Part shown: piece after piece, positions 38,707 to 45,506 of the stretch
How positions within the stretch are numbered: position 1 is the stretch's first letter
Layout of the letters: every line of letters starts with the position of its first letter
Translations under genes and position numbers: made by a program
From: Clostridiales bacterium
GTDB taxonomy: Bacteria > Bacillota > Clostridia > Christensenellales > UBA3700
DNA: 64,000 nucleotides
Assembly (NCBI GenBank): GCA_015055975.1
Contig: SVHF01000005.1
Location: 2,676-66,675 of the forward strand
Reading direction: 5' to 3'
The notes under the pieces: generated by a model
Databases searched by the model: none
What the model saw: only the letters and a program-made list of their open reading frames with translations
Told to the model about the DNA's origin: nothing

Positions 38707-40251
38707 TTAAAACTTAATATCAAAAATATCTGTGCAAATTCTATTTGCGTATTCTGGTTCGTGGGTAACTAATAATATGGCGCCTTTATAGTCTTGTAGA
38801 GCGTCAAATAGGGCATCTTTTGCATTGACGTCTAAATGATTAGTAGGCTCGTCTAAAATAAGCAAATTTGAAGACTTTTGCATAATTGCACAAAGTTTAA
38901 TCTTTACTTGTTCTCCACCAGATAGGTTTCCAACTGGTTTTGTAGCAAGTTCTCCGCGAAGGCCAACCTTTGCAAGTTCGCTTCTTATTTCTTTTGCATT
39001 CATTTTAGGGAACATTTCGTTCATAAATGTCGTTGCAGATATTGTTTTAGATCTAAACTCCAAATCTTGTTCAACATAGTTGATTTTTGTTTGAAGGTGG
39101 AAATCAAATGTGCCTGAGATTGCTGGAAGCTTATGCATCAATGTCTTTAAAAGAGTAGTCTTTCCAAGACCATTTGTTCCTCTAATCCACATCTTTGTAT
39201 CTGATGTCATAGATAAATCTATAGGGGGCAAAATAGCATGTCCATCGTATCCAATTTCAAGATTCTTAACTTCAAGTAAGTGTCTTGCTAGTATTTGAAC
39301 GTAAGGGAAGTTGAAAACTGGTTTTACAGTAGATACTGGCTTTTGCATAACATCAATTCTATCTAACATCTTTTGACGAGAATTCGCCATACCTGCAGTT
39401 GCTGCACGTGCTTTATTTTTAGCGATGTATTCTTCCATACGCTTAATTTCTCTTTGTTGACGTTCATAATCATCTTGATATTGTTGAGCTTTTTGCTCAT
39501 GTTGTAGTAGGTATTCATTATATGAGCACCAATATTTTGTGATTTGTCCGTTTTCAATATTGATGATTATCTTGCAAGTATTATTTAAAAATTGAGTATC
39601 GTGAGAAACAAGAATGAATGTACCCTTGAAAGAATTCAAGAACTTGTTTAGCCAATCGATTTGCTCCAAATCCAAAAAGTTAGTAGGCTCATCAAGTAGC
39701 ATTACATCTAAATCTTGAAGCAATAGCTTTGCTAGCATTAACTTTGCACGTTGACCACCAGAAAGCGTAGCAATTAAAGTATCATAACCATAGTTATTAA
39801 CGCCAAGGCCTGTTGCTACCTTTTTGATTTCAGATTCTAAATCGTAAAAGTTCGCGTGTTCTAATCTTTCTTGCATCTTTGCTGTTTTTTCGATTAGGGC
39901 ATTTAGTTGCTTTTCGTCCGCTTCTCCCATTTTCTCATAAAGAGAATTAAGTTCTGCTTCTAAATCAAATAAATGTTGGAATGAAGTTTTTAAATATTCC
40001 ATGACAGTTAAAGATCTGTCTATATTTGCATGTTGATCTAAATAACCCCATCTAATTCCGTTTAACCATTTAACTTCGCCTTCATCTTGAGAAAGGTTTC
40101 CTGCAATTATATTCATAAATGTAGATTTTCCTGCGCCATTTAAGCCAACAACACCAATGTGCTCACCATTATTTACGGTAAGATTTGCATTGTTGAATAA
40201 CTGCTTTTCATCAAAGACATGAGATAAATTAGTAATTGTTAAAACGCTCAT
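38707..40251 (-). CDS. ABC-F family ATPase (YfmM/YkpA-like translation factor)
   Basis: Two NBDs (GLNGAGKST/LSGGQ/LLDEPTN and GTNGLGKTT/LSGGE/ILDEPTN), PtIM linker, no TM. Confidence 0.92.
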   Translation of the reverse strand: MSVLTITNLSHVFDEKQLFNNANLTVNNGEHIGVVGLNGAGKSTFMNIIAGNLSQDEGEVKWLNGIRWGYLDQHANIDRSLTVMEYLKTSFQHLFDLEAELNSLYEKMGEADEKQLNALIEKTAKMQERLEHANFYDLESEIKKVATGLGVNNYGYDTLIATLSGGQRAKLMLAKLLLQDLDVMLLDEPTNFLDLEQIDWLNKFLNSFKGTFILVSHDTQFLNNTCKIIINIENGQITKYWCSYNEYLLQHEQKAQQYQDDYERQQREIKRMEEYIAKNKARAATAGMANSRQKMLDRIDVMQKPVSTVKPVFNFPYVQILARHLLEVKNLEIGYDGHAILPPIDLSMTSDTKMWIRGTNGLGKTTLLKTLMHKLPAISGTFDFHLQTKINYVEQDLEFRSKTISATTFMNEMFPKMNAKEIRSELAKVGLRGELATKPVGNLSGGEQVKIKLCAIMQKSSNLLILDEPTNHLDVNAKDALFDALQDYKGAILLVTHEPEYANRICTDIFDIKF

Positions 40252-40359
40252 GCCATTATTGTAAGATTTTAATATTGAATTATGCAACCAATAAAGTATG
40301 AAATATCTCCATTGAATAAAATATTATATTATGTTAATATTTTAACAGGAGGCTGTAAA

Positions 40360-41118
40360 ATGGCAAATAAGGTTATCGCTTTCGCAGGAAAAGGCGGAGT
40401 AGGAAAAACAAGTTTATCTGCGCTAACTGTTAAGTTATTGTGTAGCAAATTTAAAGATAAAAAGATTTTGGCAATTGATGCCGATCCAGCAGTTGGGTTA
40501 TCTACAGCATTAGGAGTTGAAGTAACACACACTGTTAATGATGTTAGATTAAATTTTATCGACGAATTAAAAAAACCAGATAGATTATCTACAATGGAAA
40601 TTTTAAATGAAGCTCATTTTGAATTATCTGACATAATGATTGATTGTAAAGATTATGCGTTTTTGGCAATTGGAAGACCAGAAGGAGCCGGTTGCTATTG
40701 TTCAATAAATAGTTTCTTAAAAGATATTATTTCAGAAATTGCATCCAATTTTGATTATGTAGTTATTGATGGCGAGGCTGGAATTGAGCAAGTTAATAGA
40801 AGAGTAATGCAAACCGTTACAGATTTAGTTTTAGTTTCTGATGGAAGCGCTAAAGGTATAAATGTAGCGAGAACTATTCAAGATGTAGCTAAGAATTTAC
40901 AAATGTATAATAACTCAGGAATTATAATAAATAGAGTGAAAGAAGACAAGTTCAAGGATTTAATCAATCTTGATGGATTGAGCTTATATGGATTTATTGA
41001 TGAGGACCCAAATCTTCAACTATTAGATATTCAAGGAAAATCTCTATTTGAATTAGAAGATAACTCAATTACAGTTAAAGGATTAGAAACAGCACTTAAA
41101 AAGGCAGGAATTATATAA
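40360..41118 (+). CDS. cooC: CooC/AcsF-like nickel-insertion ATPase
   Basis: GKGGVGKT, DADP, GRPEGAGCYC (CxC), IDGEAGIE; SD AGGAGG before ATG 40360. Confidence 0.8.
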   Translation: MANKVIAFAGKGGVGKTSLSALTVKLLCSKFKDKKILAIDADPAVGLSTALGVEVTHTVNDVRLNFIDELKKPDRLSTMEILNEAHFELSDIMIDCKDYAFLAIGRPEGAGCYCSINSFLKDIISEIASNFDYVVIDGEAGIEQVNRRVMQTVTDLVLVSDGSAKGINVARTIQDVAKNLQMYNNSGIIINRVKEDKFKDLINLDGLSLYGFIDEDPNLQLLDIQGKSLFELEDNSITVKGLETALKKAGII

Positions 41119-42326
41119 TGCGTGATTTAAAACATATCCATTTTTATGAAGATTTGCTAGAACAAGCAAACAATGAATTGGTGCAAAAAGCGAAAAAAGA
41201 AGGAAAGGCTTGTGTTGCATATACCTGTTATTATATGCCAGAAGCGCTATTAAATTTAGACAATAGCTTTTCTGTTAGACTTCGCGCTCCACATACAGGG
41301 TCATTAGATATTAGCCAATATTATATGTCTAGTTTTATTTGTGGATATTCAAGAGCACTTTTAGAGAGAGCATTTGAAGGTGGATTCAATTTCGTTGATT
41401 GTTATTTTTCATCAGACACATGCCAACAAATGGTCAGAGTTGTTGAAAACATCCACGAAATGAATCTAATAGACAACAAACGATTCTATTACAACATTAT
41501 CGATGCGCCATTGAAGATAACAGAACATGGCACTGAGTTTTACACAAATCAAGTTAAAACAAGATTTTTAGAACCACTTAGAGATAAGTTTAATTGTGAT
41601 ATATCAGAAGAGGCCTTAAGAAAAGCGGTTGAAATGCATAATAGAATGTGTGCAATTTTTGAGGAAATCTCTGAAATGAGAAAGGAAGAAAATCCAAAAA
41701 TCACACCAAGAGAATTCCATATTTTATGTTTGGTTAGTTATGCTTGTCCTACATATTTAATATTGCCATATCTTGAAGAAACTCTTGAGGATTTAAGACA
41801 TCGTCAAAAGGATGAAAAAAATAGATGGAGAGCAAGAGTAGTTGTAGTTGGTTCTGAAATAGACGATTATACATTCTCAGAAATTTTGGAATCTTGTAAT
41901 TGTTATGTAGTTGCAGATAGATATTGCTATGGATCAATACCTGGAAGACAACAAATTGTATTAAATGACAAAGAGCCTGTATTAGATCAAGTATGTAGAA
42001 ACTATTTAGTTACTAATCAATGCCCAAGATTTATGGCACAAGATAAGATTCAAGGAAGAAGGGAACTTATTAAGAGACTTGTAGAAGATTATAAGGCAGA
42101 TGGCATTATATATGAACAAGCAAAGTTCTGCGATTTCTGGGGATATGAAAGAATGCTTGCATCAAGAGTATTGCAAGATGAATACCATATTCCAACAACG
42201 CAAATCGATAGAGAATATGTAGTATCTGGATCAGGTCAGTTAATGACAAGAATTCAAGCTTTTGTTGAAAGCTTAGAAATAAAGAAAATACAAGCAAAGG
42301 AGGCAGCAAAGCATGGCAAAGACTAA
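41118..42326 (+). CDS. 2-hydroxyacyl-CoA dehydratase family subunit (beta/BcrC/DCCP-like)
   Basis: YTCYYMPE, ICGYSR, DTCQQ, RYCYG, CPRF, KFCDFW; C-terminal TRIQAFVE. Confidence 0.85.
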   Translation: MRDLKHIHFYEDLLEQANNELVQKAKKEGKACVAYTCYYMPEALLNLDNSFSVRLRAPHTGSLDISQYYMSSFICGYSRALLERAFEGGFNFVDCYFSSDTCQQMVRVVENIHEMNLIDNKRFYYNIIDAPLKITEHGTEFYTNQVKTRFLEPLRDKFNCDISEEALRKAVEMHNRMCAIFEEISEMRKEENPKITPREFHILCLVSYACPTYLILPYLEETLEDLRHRQKDEKNRWRARVVVVGSEIDDYTFSEILESCNCYVVADRYCYGSIPGRQQIVLNDKEPVLDQVCRNYLVTNQCPRFMAQDKIQGRRELIKRLVEDYKADGIIYEQAKFCDFWGYERMLASRVLQDEYHIPTTQIDREYVVSGSGQLMTRIQAFVESLEIKKIQAKEAAKHGKD

Positions 42327-43857
42327 GCATATAGCAGATAATTATAAGCCAAAAACTTGTATTTATAAACGCCGTGAATGGCGAGGCTTTAAAGATACTT
42401 TCTATGATTTTTTCCAATGGTTAAAATTGTGGGGGATTTTGGCAGGCTGGCTTCTTGCCCATCCAATCCAAAATATAAAGGCATTATTTAGATATCGTTG
42501 GATGTACACATATCTAACGGTTGTTTCATTCTTTGATAGATTAATGAGCCAAATGAAAGGAGCTGCTCTTAGAGCTGCTAGAAACAATATGAATACTCTA
42601 GCAAAAATAGTAACAAAGCATTTAACAATACTATTTTCAGCAGATGAGCATTTGCATCCTCATTCTAAAAAGGCTAAAGAAAAATCTGAGCATATCATTT
42701 TGATTGATGAATTATTACCGGGCATTTTCTGCGCAGGATTTAAGGGATATAACACAATTTTATATCAAGTAGCTCCTGTATATTTGCCATCATTAATTAA
42801 TCAACATACGCCAGTTCATTATATCAGCCAAACTGAAAGCTATGGATTGCCGGCAGATGTATGTCCGCTTCCATCATATGAAGCAGGCGTTGCGATTGAA
42901 GATGATTTCTGCAAAGTTGGTAAATGCTTTATCTCATGCAATATGCCATGTGATGGCAGTATCATGACATCAGCTGTACAAGATAGACGACATGGACTAC
43001 CAACAATGCCTTTAAATGTTCCACTTCGTTGGAAAAGAGAAGAGGTCATGGATTATGCAGTAAAAGAATACAAATCTGTAATTAAGTTCATTGAAGATCA
43101 AACTGGTGCAATATTTGATTACGATGAATTGAGAAAAGCTTGCGAAATTTGGAACGAACAAACAAGAATGAAGATGGAAAAGTGGGAATTAAATAAAACT
43201 GACATTCCACCACACACAGGCTCTACATCTTGGTTGTATAGAATATTTGAATATCAATTTGCATGCGGAAATGCTCAAGCTCTAAAGAACGATAAAAAGG
43301 TCAATGCAATATTGAGAAAGCAAGTAGCTAAAGGAATATTCCCAAAGACTGTAAAGCATCGTGCAATTATTTGGAATACGCCATGTAACAATTATGCAAA
43401 CTTTAACGAATGGTTATTGGACTGTTGGGGTATTGATTCTGTTTGCGAAATGATTGATTTCCAAGGATCTGAAATAATTGATACATCTACACCAGAAACT
43501 ATGTTATATGGTATTGCTAAGATGGCACAAGGAGCTACCATGAGAGTTCATACAAAAGGTGGCTATGAAGTTATCTTAGATGATTTATGGGTTAAGATGG
43601 AAGAATTTAATGCCGATATGGTAATTATGTTTGAGCAAATTTCTTGCAAGGGCGTAGCGGCTATAAGCGGCTTATTTGAAGAACAAGCAATGAAGAGGGG
43701 CGTTAAGTTTGTTTGGGTTAAACAAGATTTGATGGACCCAACCTCAATATCTAGAAGAGATATGAGAGACGACATTAATAAATTTATGAAGACAGTAATG
43801 AGAGAAGAACCACTAGATGAATCTCTAGTTGATTTCGACGATAGTGAATGCTGGTAG
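42313..43857 (+). CDS. 2-hydroxyacyl-CoA dehydratase family alpha subunit with N-terminal amphipathic extension
   Basis: YGLPADVCP, NMPCDG, QISCKG, D.MDP motifs; about 100 extra N-terminal residues rich in W/F/K/R. Confidence 0.8.
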   Translation: MAKTKHIADNYKPKTCIYKRREWRGFKDTFYDFFQWLKLWGILAGWLLAHPIQNIKALFRYRWMYTYLTVVSFFDRLMSQMKGAALRAARNNMNTLAKIVTKHLTILFSADEHLHPHSKKAKEKSEHIILIDELLPGIFCAGFKGYNTILYQVAPVYLPSLINQHTPVHYISQTESYGLPADVCPLPSYEAGVAIEDDFCKVGKCFISCNMPCDGSIMTSAVQDRRHGLPTMPLNVPLRWKREEVMDYAVKEYKSVIKFIEDQTGAIFDYDELRKACEIWNEQTRMKMEKWELNKTDIPPHTGSTSWLYRIFEYQFACGNAQALKNDKKVNAILRKQVAKGIFPKTVKHRAIIWNTPCNNYANFNEWLLDCWGIDSVCEMIDFQGSEIIDTSTPETMLYGIAKMAQGATMRVHTKGGYEVILDDLWVKMEEFNADMVIMFEQISCKGVAAISGLFEEQAMKRGVKFVWVKQDLMDPTSISRRDMRDDINKFMKTVMREEPLDESLVDFDDSECW

Positions 43858-43867
43858 GAGGCTAAAG

Positions 43868-44677
43868 ATGAAAAAATATTTTTGTGGATGTGACGTAGGT
43901 TCAACATATGCTAAATGCGTAATAATGGATGAGGAAGGCAAAATTCTTGCTCACTCAACAATTCGTTCAAAGATAAATCCAGTGCAATCGGCAACAATAG
44001 CTCTAGATGAAACAATTAAACAAGTAGATGGGCTAAATAGTGCACAAGAATTGACATATCTTGTAGGAACAGGATATGGAAGAAATAAGGTGCCATTTGC
44101 TGATGAAAATATATCTGAAATCTCTTGCCATGCGATGGGCGTACATGTAGTTGATCCAACTATAACTGGTATTATTGATATCGGTGGACAAGACGTTAAA
44201 GGTATTAGAATAGATAAAGATGGAACTGTTTTGAACTTTGCTATGAACGATAAATGTGCAGCAGGCACAGGAAAGTTCTATGAAGCTATGGCAAGAGCTT
44301 TCGAAATGCCACTTGAAGAATTTGCAAAGTTATCTTTAAAGGCTAAAAATGTTATTCCAATTACAGCTCAATGTACAGTATTTGCTGAATCAGAAGTAAC
44401 ATCGCTTGTTGGTGAAGGAAAACCAATGGAAGAAATTGCAGCTGGTCTTCAAGTATCTATTGCAAAAAGATGTTTTGTAATGGCTAAAAAAGCAGGCACT
44501 GATGGAAAGATTACATTAACGGGTGGTTGTGCTAAAAATGAAGGATTGAAAAAGGCAATTGAGCAAGTTCTAAGAATTAAAGTAACAGAACTTCCTCTAG
44601 ATCCTCAACTTATGGGCGCACTAGGAGCTGCAGAATATGCAAGACAAAAGGGATTGGCAGAAGGAGCGAATAAATAA
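43868..44677 (+). CDS. Acyl-CoA dehydratase activase (HgdC/BcrAD ASKHA ATPase)
   Basis: GCDVGST, GTGYGR, EISCHA, IDIGGQD, NDKCAAGTG, CTVFAESE, LTGG; start at MKKYF. Confidence 0.92.
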   Translation: MKKYFCGCDVGSTYAKCVIMDEEGKILAHSTIRSKINPVQSATIALDETIKQVDGLNSAQELTYLVGTGYGRNKVPFADENISEISCHAMGVHVVDPTITGIIDIGGQDVKGIRIDKDGTVLNFAMNDKCAAGTGKFYEAMARAFEMPLEEFAKLSLKAKNVIPITAQCTVFAESEVTSLVGEGKPMEEIAAGLQVSIAKRCFVMAKKAGTDGKITLTGGCAKNEGLKKAIEQVLRIKVTELPLDPQLMGALGAAEYARQKGLAEGANK

Positions 44678-44790
44678 TGATTACATTGTTTTTGATTTAT
44701 TATTTTAACCTAGATACAAAACTTATCTATCTTTTGCAAAAACCAATGATGAAGCATTATGACAACATAAAGAGAGATAGAAAACTATAA
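44677..44790 (+). CDS. Unannotated 37-aa small membrane protein (MITLFLIYYFNLDTKLIYLLQKPMMKHYDNIKRDRKL)
   Basis: Fills the whole gap; TAATG overlap with both neighbours; SD AAGGAG upstream. Confidence 0.75.
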   Translation: MITLFLIYYFNLDTKLIYLLQKPMMKHYDNIKRDRKL

Positions 44791-45506
44791 TGAATTTGTA
44801 TGATGGATTAATAAAAGACATTTTCAAGGTGTTAGCTAATTATCCAATGAAAAAATTGGATAGCAAGCCTTTGGCTTGGGATATTAATAACAAGAACGTT
44901 TTTCTTTTAGATAAGGAAATGGCATATGAGCTTGGTGGATATCCTAAAGATAGTGTTAATATTATAATCCAATCGGACAACCAATTTATTGACGATGGAA
45001 TATATTTTATATGCCCAAATGATTTTGACATCAAATTGCTTGAAAAACAGCGTCATTTATCATTTGGGAAAATCGTTTTATTAAAGACAAAAAATCTTGA
45101 CGAAAATAATATCTATGATTTCACGCAAAAAACTTTAATTAAAGATACGAAAGCTTATTTTAATGACGTTATGACAAGAGCGTCTTCAAAGCACTATTTT
45201 ATAAATTATAAAGTGTCCAAAAAGGCTATAAAAGATGGCTTTGATATCTATAAGATGGCAAGCTCAATACATTCTTCATATCTAGAAATAGATGAAGTTG
45301 TTAATTGTGCTGTTATAATATTATTGGGCGATATGAATATTTATAAAGAGCTTTTGCCATTGGCGGAAAAGAATAAGGAAATATCTATAGCTCTAAATCA
45401 CATATTTGATGGCGTAAATATGGATTGTAAGTCCTGTGATATGACAGATATATGTGATGAGATAAAAGAGCTGCGTGCAATACACAAAAAACAACAAAAG
45501 GAGTAA
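44790..45506 (+). CDS. Acetyl-CoA synthase (AcsB/CdhC) middle-domain-like protein with C-terminal CxxC-x5-C
   Basis: YELGG, SFGKIVLL, VMTRAS...YKVSKKAIKDG resemble the ACS/CdhC region; ends DCKSCDMTDICDEI. Confidence 0.55.
   Translation: MNLYDGLIKDIFKVLANYPMKKLDSKPLAWDINNKNVFLLDKEMAYELGGYPKDSVNIIIQSDNQFIDDGIYFICPNDFDIKLLEKQRHLSFGKIVLLKTKNLDENNIYDFTQKTLIKDTKAYFNDVMTRASSKHYFINYKVSKKAIKDGFDIYKMASSIHSSYLEIDEVVNCAVIILLGDMNIYKELLPLAEKNKEISIALNHIFDGVNMDCKSCDMTDICDEIKELRAIHKKQQKE

Follow-up and report, generated by a model that had tools for sequence, protein, structure and literature searches.

To our knowledge, DCCP and BzdN are the only two solved proteins in which the [8Fe-9S] double cubane has been observed. 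BzdN is a subunit of BzdNO from Aromatoleum sp. CIB (PDB 8S02), the catalytic dimer of the Bzd-type class I benzoyl-CoA reductase, and its [8Fe-9S] ligands are C36, C73, C100, C263, C293 and C327; the single cluster of BzdO occupies the place of the proximal sub-cluster of BzdN (PMC11971306). BzdNO is also reported to show an absorbance shoulder at 600-900 nm and to take up several electrons in titrations. The double cubane of DCCP, which is the partner of DCCP-R in Carboxydothermus hydrogenoformans (6ENO, 7YYL; PMC9351452), is held by six cysteines out of a seven-cysteine motif, to which Cys94 belongs (PMC7317905). Two heterodimers of the same superfamily are also described: HadBC, the (R)-2-hydroxyisocaproyl-CoA dehydratase with its activator HadI (PDB 3O3M), and MbdON, the 3-methylbenzoyl-CoA reductase of Thauera chlorobenzoica (PDB 9G87, 9GAI).

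In this study, we analysed a 64,000-nucleotide stretch of clostridial DNA, hereafter the window, from a genome of 1.59 Mb that is 98% complete. The original prediction for this DNA was that one gene encodes a dehydratase-family subunit which may hold two cubanes while pairing with an alpha-type subunit. We found this gene, beta, in a six-gene operon, in which the genes overlap or are tightly packed and have ribosome-binding sites upstream. Our reading is that beta encodes a BzdN-like subunit of a heterodimeric, ATP-activated Fe-S enzyme of the BCR/2-hydroxyacyl-CoA dehydratase superfamily, and that this subunit is a predicted [8Fe-9S] carrier; we put the probability at about 0.72. We assign the cluster ligands, the fold and the type of each subunit by homology. 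The beta reading frame (41118-42326, + strand) runs uninterrupted from an ATG and codes for 402 amino acids, and the opposite strand is rich in stop codons. The product has a full-length HGD-D domain (PF06050), with 291.1 bits against a Pfam gathering threshold of 28.4. Its scores for the models of the described families were all below the cut-offs, namely 129.5 bits for the DCCP model double_cubane NF040772 (cut-off 350), which was the best-scoring NCBIfam model, 81 bits for the HadC model NF052456 (cut-off 700), 74.7 bits for the BzdN model TIGR03190 (cut-off 453.8) and 66.8 bits for the BcrC model (cut-off 421).

Beta contains 15 cysteines in total, and the six that had been picked out by their motifs were all present: C37 in YTC (codon at 41226-41228), C75 in ICGY (41340-41342), C102 in DTCQ (41421-41423), C270 in YCYG (41925-41927), C302 in CPRF (42021-42023) and C338 in FCDF (42129-42131), all on the + strand. 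HMMER pairwise and profile alignments placed C37/75/102/270/302/338 one-to-one on C36/73/100/263/293/327 of BzdN (8S02_B), and the HMMER alignment with DCCP (6ENO) placed the same six on six cysteines of that protein. The extra cysteines of beta, once aligned to cluster ligands, coincided with the ligand positions of both proteins, to which beta is about 20-22% identical.

The discriminating columns were read from a profile of 63 beta-family members against the solved relatives, in which BzdN scored 289 bits, DCCP 246, HadC 236 and MbdN 194. At the columns of C75, C102 and C338, cysteine was found in BzdN, DCCP, HadC and MbdN, and C75 was kept in all five solved relatives; in the alpha subunit described below, the corresponding residues are C184, C213 and C445. 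The triad C37/C270/C302 was complete only in BzdN and DCCP among the solved relatives, while HadC has one of the three and MbdN none. C37 is absent from HadC and MbdN, the column of C270 holds Ala in HadC, and the three columns hold Gln, Phe and Ser, respectively, in MbdN. As judged from this alignment, the triad C37/C270/C302 separates the double-cluster proteins (BzdN, DCCP) from the single-cluster ones (MbdN, HadC). We infer by homology that C75, C102 and C338 would hold the proximal cubane and C37, C270 and C302 the distal one, because only the former triad survives in the alpha-type subunits and the BzdO cluster sits at the proximal position; the assignment is based on the survival of this triad in BzdO, the alpha subunit, MbdN and HadC. 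The picture of one cubane for each terminal set of cysteines, with which the analysis began, does not hold in this arrangement, as each predicted cubane mixes N-terminal and C-terminal cysteines.

Conservation of the six cysteines was followed at several depths. All six, together with C293, were invariant in 73 of 73 beta orthologues (72 from related loci and the window itself), and the other eight cysteines varied. In the 63-sequence alignment, which extends to sequences of 24% identity, only the columns of the six cysteines, P41 and R378 were invariant. This conservation, taken over the family alignment, is well beyond chance. Among 57 full-length sequences, i.e., beta and its 56 nearest representatives, 47 carried all six, and most of the exceptions, which have gaps at ligand columns, look truncated or broken. 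We rejected C293 as an equivalent of BzdN C288 and as a candidate ligand, because it is Ser or Ala in the relatives at 50% identity and the alignment puts it on BzdN A284.

The surroundings of the distal site are less well kept. Four basic residues (R53, R267, R290 and H330) surround the distal cubane of BzdN; beta keeps one, R53 as R54, and the pairwise alignment shows I274, T299 and W341 in place of the other three. This loss would suit a beta that, like HadC, carries a single [4Fe-4S] or [4Fe-5S] cluster, and in which C37, C270 and C302 serve a structural or redox-regulatory purpose or are remnants of a lost distal cubane. HadC itself has a cysteine at one of the three distal positions and yet binds no second cubane (PMC7317905). 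However, the distal cysteines are all invariant across the 63 sequences whereas non-ligand cysteines vary freely, and both solved proteins with the full triad bind [8Fe-9S] (PMC11971306, PMC7317905). We therefore consider a single-cluster beta unlikely.

The fold of beta pointed in the same direction as the cysteines. The AF2 model, which was built with the 63-sequence alignment, had a pLDDT of 94.5 and a pTM of 0.93. In the Foldseek search against the PDB, BzdN (8S02_B) was the top match with TM scores of 0.85/0.90 and an rmsd of 2.2 A, followed by DCCP, HadC and MbdN, with the alpha-type chains lower in the ranking. The TM scores of the model to BzdN, DCCP, HadC and MbdN were 0.81-0.90, and the model has the two-domain alpha/beta fold of these proteins.

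The alpha-type partner is encoded directly downstream. Its gene (42313-43857, + strand) overlaps beta by 14 nt and is preceded by AGGAGG, and the product is an HGD-D subunit of 514 amino acids (Pfam HGD-D, 140 bits) with a conserved N-terminal extension. The only invariant cysteines of alpha were C184, C213 and C445, in 58 of 58 full-length and 23 of 23 diverse homologues, and their counterparts in MbdO and DCCP are the cysteines of the proximal-type triad. Alpha is thus predicted to have a single three-cysteine site for one [4Fe-4S] cluster. The top folds for its AF2 model (pLDDT 82) were MbdO, HadB and BzdO, and all beta-type chains ranked below them; the alpha family profile gave only 25 bits with BzdO. 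The proposal that beta may hold two cubanes while pairing with an alpha-type subunit is supported, at the level of homology, because the six cysteines fall on known ligands and are invariant, the fold is closest to BzdN, and the gene for a three-cysteine alpha subunit overlaps that of beta.

The presence of alpha also bears on whether beta could itself be catalytic as DCCP is, reducing a small molecule at the double cubane, with alpha as an accessory or a second, independent site. The top NCBIfam score of beta was indeed that of the DCCP model (129.5 bits). The genome, 98% complete, gave no match to PF01144 or PF02515, the domains used in the search for CoA-transferases of family I or III, and a CoA-ester substrate is not obvious for this reason. 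On the other hand, the column of DCCP Cys94 is A57 in beta and Ala or Gly in most relatives, so that the seventh cysteine of DCCP has no counterpart; alpha retains its invariant, predicted open-site three-cysteine cluster and the conserved extension; and profile and fold both match best with BzdN, whose cluster is an electron relay (PMC11971306). We regard a catalytic beta as very unlikely. A classical 2-hydroxyacyl-CoA dehydratase pathway fed by a CoA-transferase was likewise unsupported, since the window's genome contains neither a CoA-transferase of family I or III nor, as far as the search of this genome found, an OYE-type reductase.

The first gene of the operon encodes a CooC-like ATPase of the MinD/ParA family with a GAGCYC (CXC) motif (40360-41118, + strand). 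The reading frame opens at 40282, and translation probably begins at an ATG at 40360 that follows AGGAGG; the start and the CXC motif were kept in 11 orthologues. Its best solved relative was CooC1 (PDB 3KJE, E 1.6e-16), whose CXC motif lines up with this one. The stop codon overlaps the start codon of beta in the sequence TAATG, and from this overlap the two genes are predicted to be translationally coupled. An ABC-F protein is encoded divergently at 38707-40287 (- strand); for the ribosomal-protection-like model NF000355 it scored 378.2 bits, slightly less than the cut-off of 380 bits.

Behind alpha lies the gene for an ATP-dependent activase of the HgdC/DCCP-R type (43868-44677, + strand), which scored 193.9 bits for PF01869 and 220 bits for TIGR00241 (cut-off 125). 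The reading frame opens with a TTG at 43829 inside the alpha gene, and translation probably begins at 43868, with an ATG that stands behind GGAGG just past the alpha stop codon. It is the one activase over the cut-off in the window's genome, which likewise has one HGD-D pair.

Two further small genes complete the operon, and each overlaps the preceding gene by one base. A conserved mini-protein of 37 amino acids is encoded at 44677-44790 (+ strand), overlapping its neighbours at both ends, and has the motif FNLDTK...KPMxKHY that is common to loci L001 and L002. Elsewhere the mini-protein is about 51 amino acids long with a hydrophobic N-terminus; the window copy is without most of this segment, and no longer in-frame start was found for it. 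By tblastn, the mini-protein was located behind alpha in most of the related loci. The last gene (44790-45506, + strand) encodes a protein of 238 amino acids that resembles the acetyl-CoA-synthase/CdhC domain (ACS-like protein), with an E-value of 9e-4 for PF03598, below the cut-off. It has a C-terminal CxxCx5C, and the three cysteines of MDCxxCx5C were kept in six of six sequences. Its atlas neighbours are small proteins of the 'CO-methylating acetyl-CoA synthase family', about 240 amino acids in length, with PF03598 in 64-86% of the members, and the counterpart in locus L079 is annotated with PF03598.

Because the window's genome (98% complete) had no match to PF03063 (Prismane/CODH), we rejected a CODH as the client of the CooC-like ATPase, and the client must be something else. 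Most simply, it is the ACS-like protein of the same operon, as a candidate for maturation by a CooC/AcsF-type ATPase. It is possible, though unsupported, that the ATPase takes part in building the beta cluster.

To see how this arrangement is distributed, we turn to the 78 related loci, all of which are from MAGs of Oscillospiraceae, Mogibacterium/Anaerovoracaceae, Lachnospiraceae and other Clostridia. The unit of beta, alpha and mini-protein was found in nearly all of them, and the alpha-type gene was present in 73 of the 78. The CooC-like gene occurred in about 13 loci, accompanied by the activase and the ACS-like gene where the stretch was long enough. Five genomes in which the closest locus has the short form (beta, alpha and mini-protein) were examined for the helper genes. 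In three of them, a second operon on one contig carries the CooC-like gene, a beta with 50% identity, an alpha with 36% identity and the activase (L082, L083 and L084, in the genomes of loci L007, L011 and L028), with the ACS-like gene adjacent in one genome and elsewhere in the other two. The fourth has an activase beside an ACS-like gene and a CooC relative of only 29% identity, and the fifth showed no more than a fragment of an activase where a contig ends. Probably, several catalytic pairs share one helper set. A beta relative of 37% identity was found with the whole six-gene order together with a ferredoxin and an aldehyde:ferredoxin oxidoreductase. In distant relatives, a second HGD-D gene lay directly downstream of the six-cysteine gene in five of five informative contexts, which suggests that the pairing of a six-cysteine beta with an alpha is common and largely uncharacterised.

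Other neighbours recurred in about 15 of the 78 loci (e.g., L001 3193-13197, L064 597-3602 and L080 417-3227). These are an EamA transporter, a tocopherol-cyclase-like protein, an Fe-ADH, a 2-hydroxyacid dehydrogenase and a fusion of about 1000 amino acids that joins an OYE-type flavin reductase, Pyr_redox_2 and SDR. They were not found in the window's genome. As a weak lead, they may point to a pathway that reduces an acid which is unsaturated or hydroxylated and perhaps lipophilic.

A further alternative concerns what the six-cysteine site holds. That it carries a non-standard cluster (heterometal or otherwise modified), built or inserted by the CooC-like ATPase and the ACS-like protein, would fit the coupling of a CooC-like gene with a conserved metal-binding CXC motif to beta, the genome without a CODH to be served, and the presence of both genes at 37% beta identity and elsewhere in four of the five genomes whose closest beta-alpha locus is without them, but it is the least probable of the alternatives, as BzdN and DCCP were obtained in holo form from E. 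coli and no CooC was reported there (PMC11971306, PMC7317905), and the ACS-like protein of its own operon is the more natural target for maturation by a CooC/AcsF-type ATPase. In a broader form, the CooC-like ATPase with its CXC motif and the ACS-like protein with its CxxCx5C motif might constitute a dedicated maturation or electron-delivery system for this enzyme family, so that the six-cysteine site or another site of the complex would have, or be assembled with, a metal centre unlike those of BzdNO and DCCP. This is a doubtful proposal; if true, it would mean a new type of metalloenzyme system that is widespread in gut and rumen Clostridia, with a substrate that is not derived from a CoA-transferase and is possibly lipophilic.

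With beta taken as a BzdN-like subunit of an ATP-activated heterodimer, a working scheme can be proposed from the mechanism of the family (PMC7317905, PMC9351452, PMC11971306). The activase dimer would take up a low-potential electron, and ATP hydrolysis would drive the electron into the beta/alpha core. In beta, the cubane of C75/C102/C338 would lie nearer the partner and that of C37/C270/C302 would be distal, with a bridging sulfide between them, and the double cubane may relay or store one or more electrons. The electrons would then pass to the three-cysteine [4Fe-4S] cluster of alpha, where the fourth iron, free for water or substrate, could start radical chemistry. The CooC-like ATPase, the mini-protein and the ACS-like protein would act as conserved helpers.

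The beta family is large, is common in Clostridia of the gut and rumen and shows a steady association with CooC-like and ACS-like proteins, and it brings the full ligand set into a predicted heterodimeric, ATP-driven enzyme. This suggests that the design of BzdNO, in which a double cubane feeds a catalytic [4Fe-4S] cluster, is a general solution for very low potentials, beyond the reduction of aromatic rings. No paper describing the present combination of genes was found in our literature searches.

Compared with the described systems, the closest is BzdNO, which likewise joins a six-cysteine beta subunit to a longer alpha subunit with a three-cysteine [4Fe-4S] site and needs an ATP-driven electron activator of the ASKHA type, and BzdN is the best match of beta in both fold and profile. 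The idea of two cubanes with an alpha partner is therefore not new, because BzdNO (Nat Commun 2025) has that design. However, beta is only about 22% identical to BzdN, and the alpha profile reached BzdO with just the 25 bits given above. In contrast to the BzdPQ pair of BzdNOPQ, there is one activase gene here, in the operon and in the genome; the operon adds the CooC-like ATPase, the mini-protein and the ACS-like protein; and the host has a 1.6-Mb gut/rumen Clostridia genome without a context of aromatic or CoA-transferase metabolism. DCCP/DCCP-R shares the six cysteines, the fold (TM about 0.8) and a single-gene activase, but DCCP is a homodimer without alpha, has the seventh Cys94 and uses the double cubane as its active site, whereas beta has an overlapping alpha gene, from which its heterodimeric state is predicted. 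HadBC with HadI is likewise an HGD-D heterodimer with a single-gene activator, but HadC has one cluster on three cysteines and no equivalents of C37 and C270, and the present genome is without a CoA-transferase of the HadA type. MbdON is a heterodimer of the same superfamily, and MbdO is the best match of alpha in sequence and fold; all three distal cysteines are absent from MbdN, in which, unlike in beta, a double cubane is not expected from the cysteine count. Taken alone, beta is a new member of the BzdN type, while the system around it departs from the described ones.
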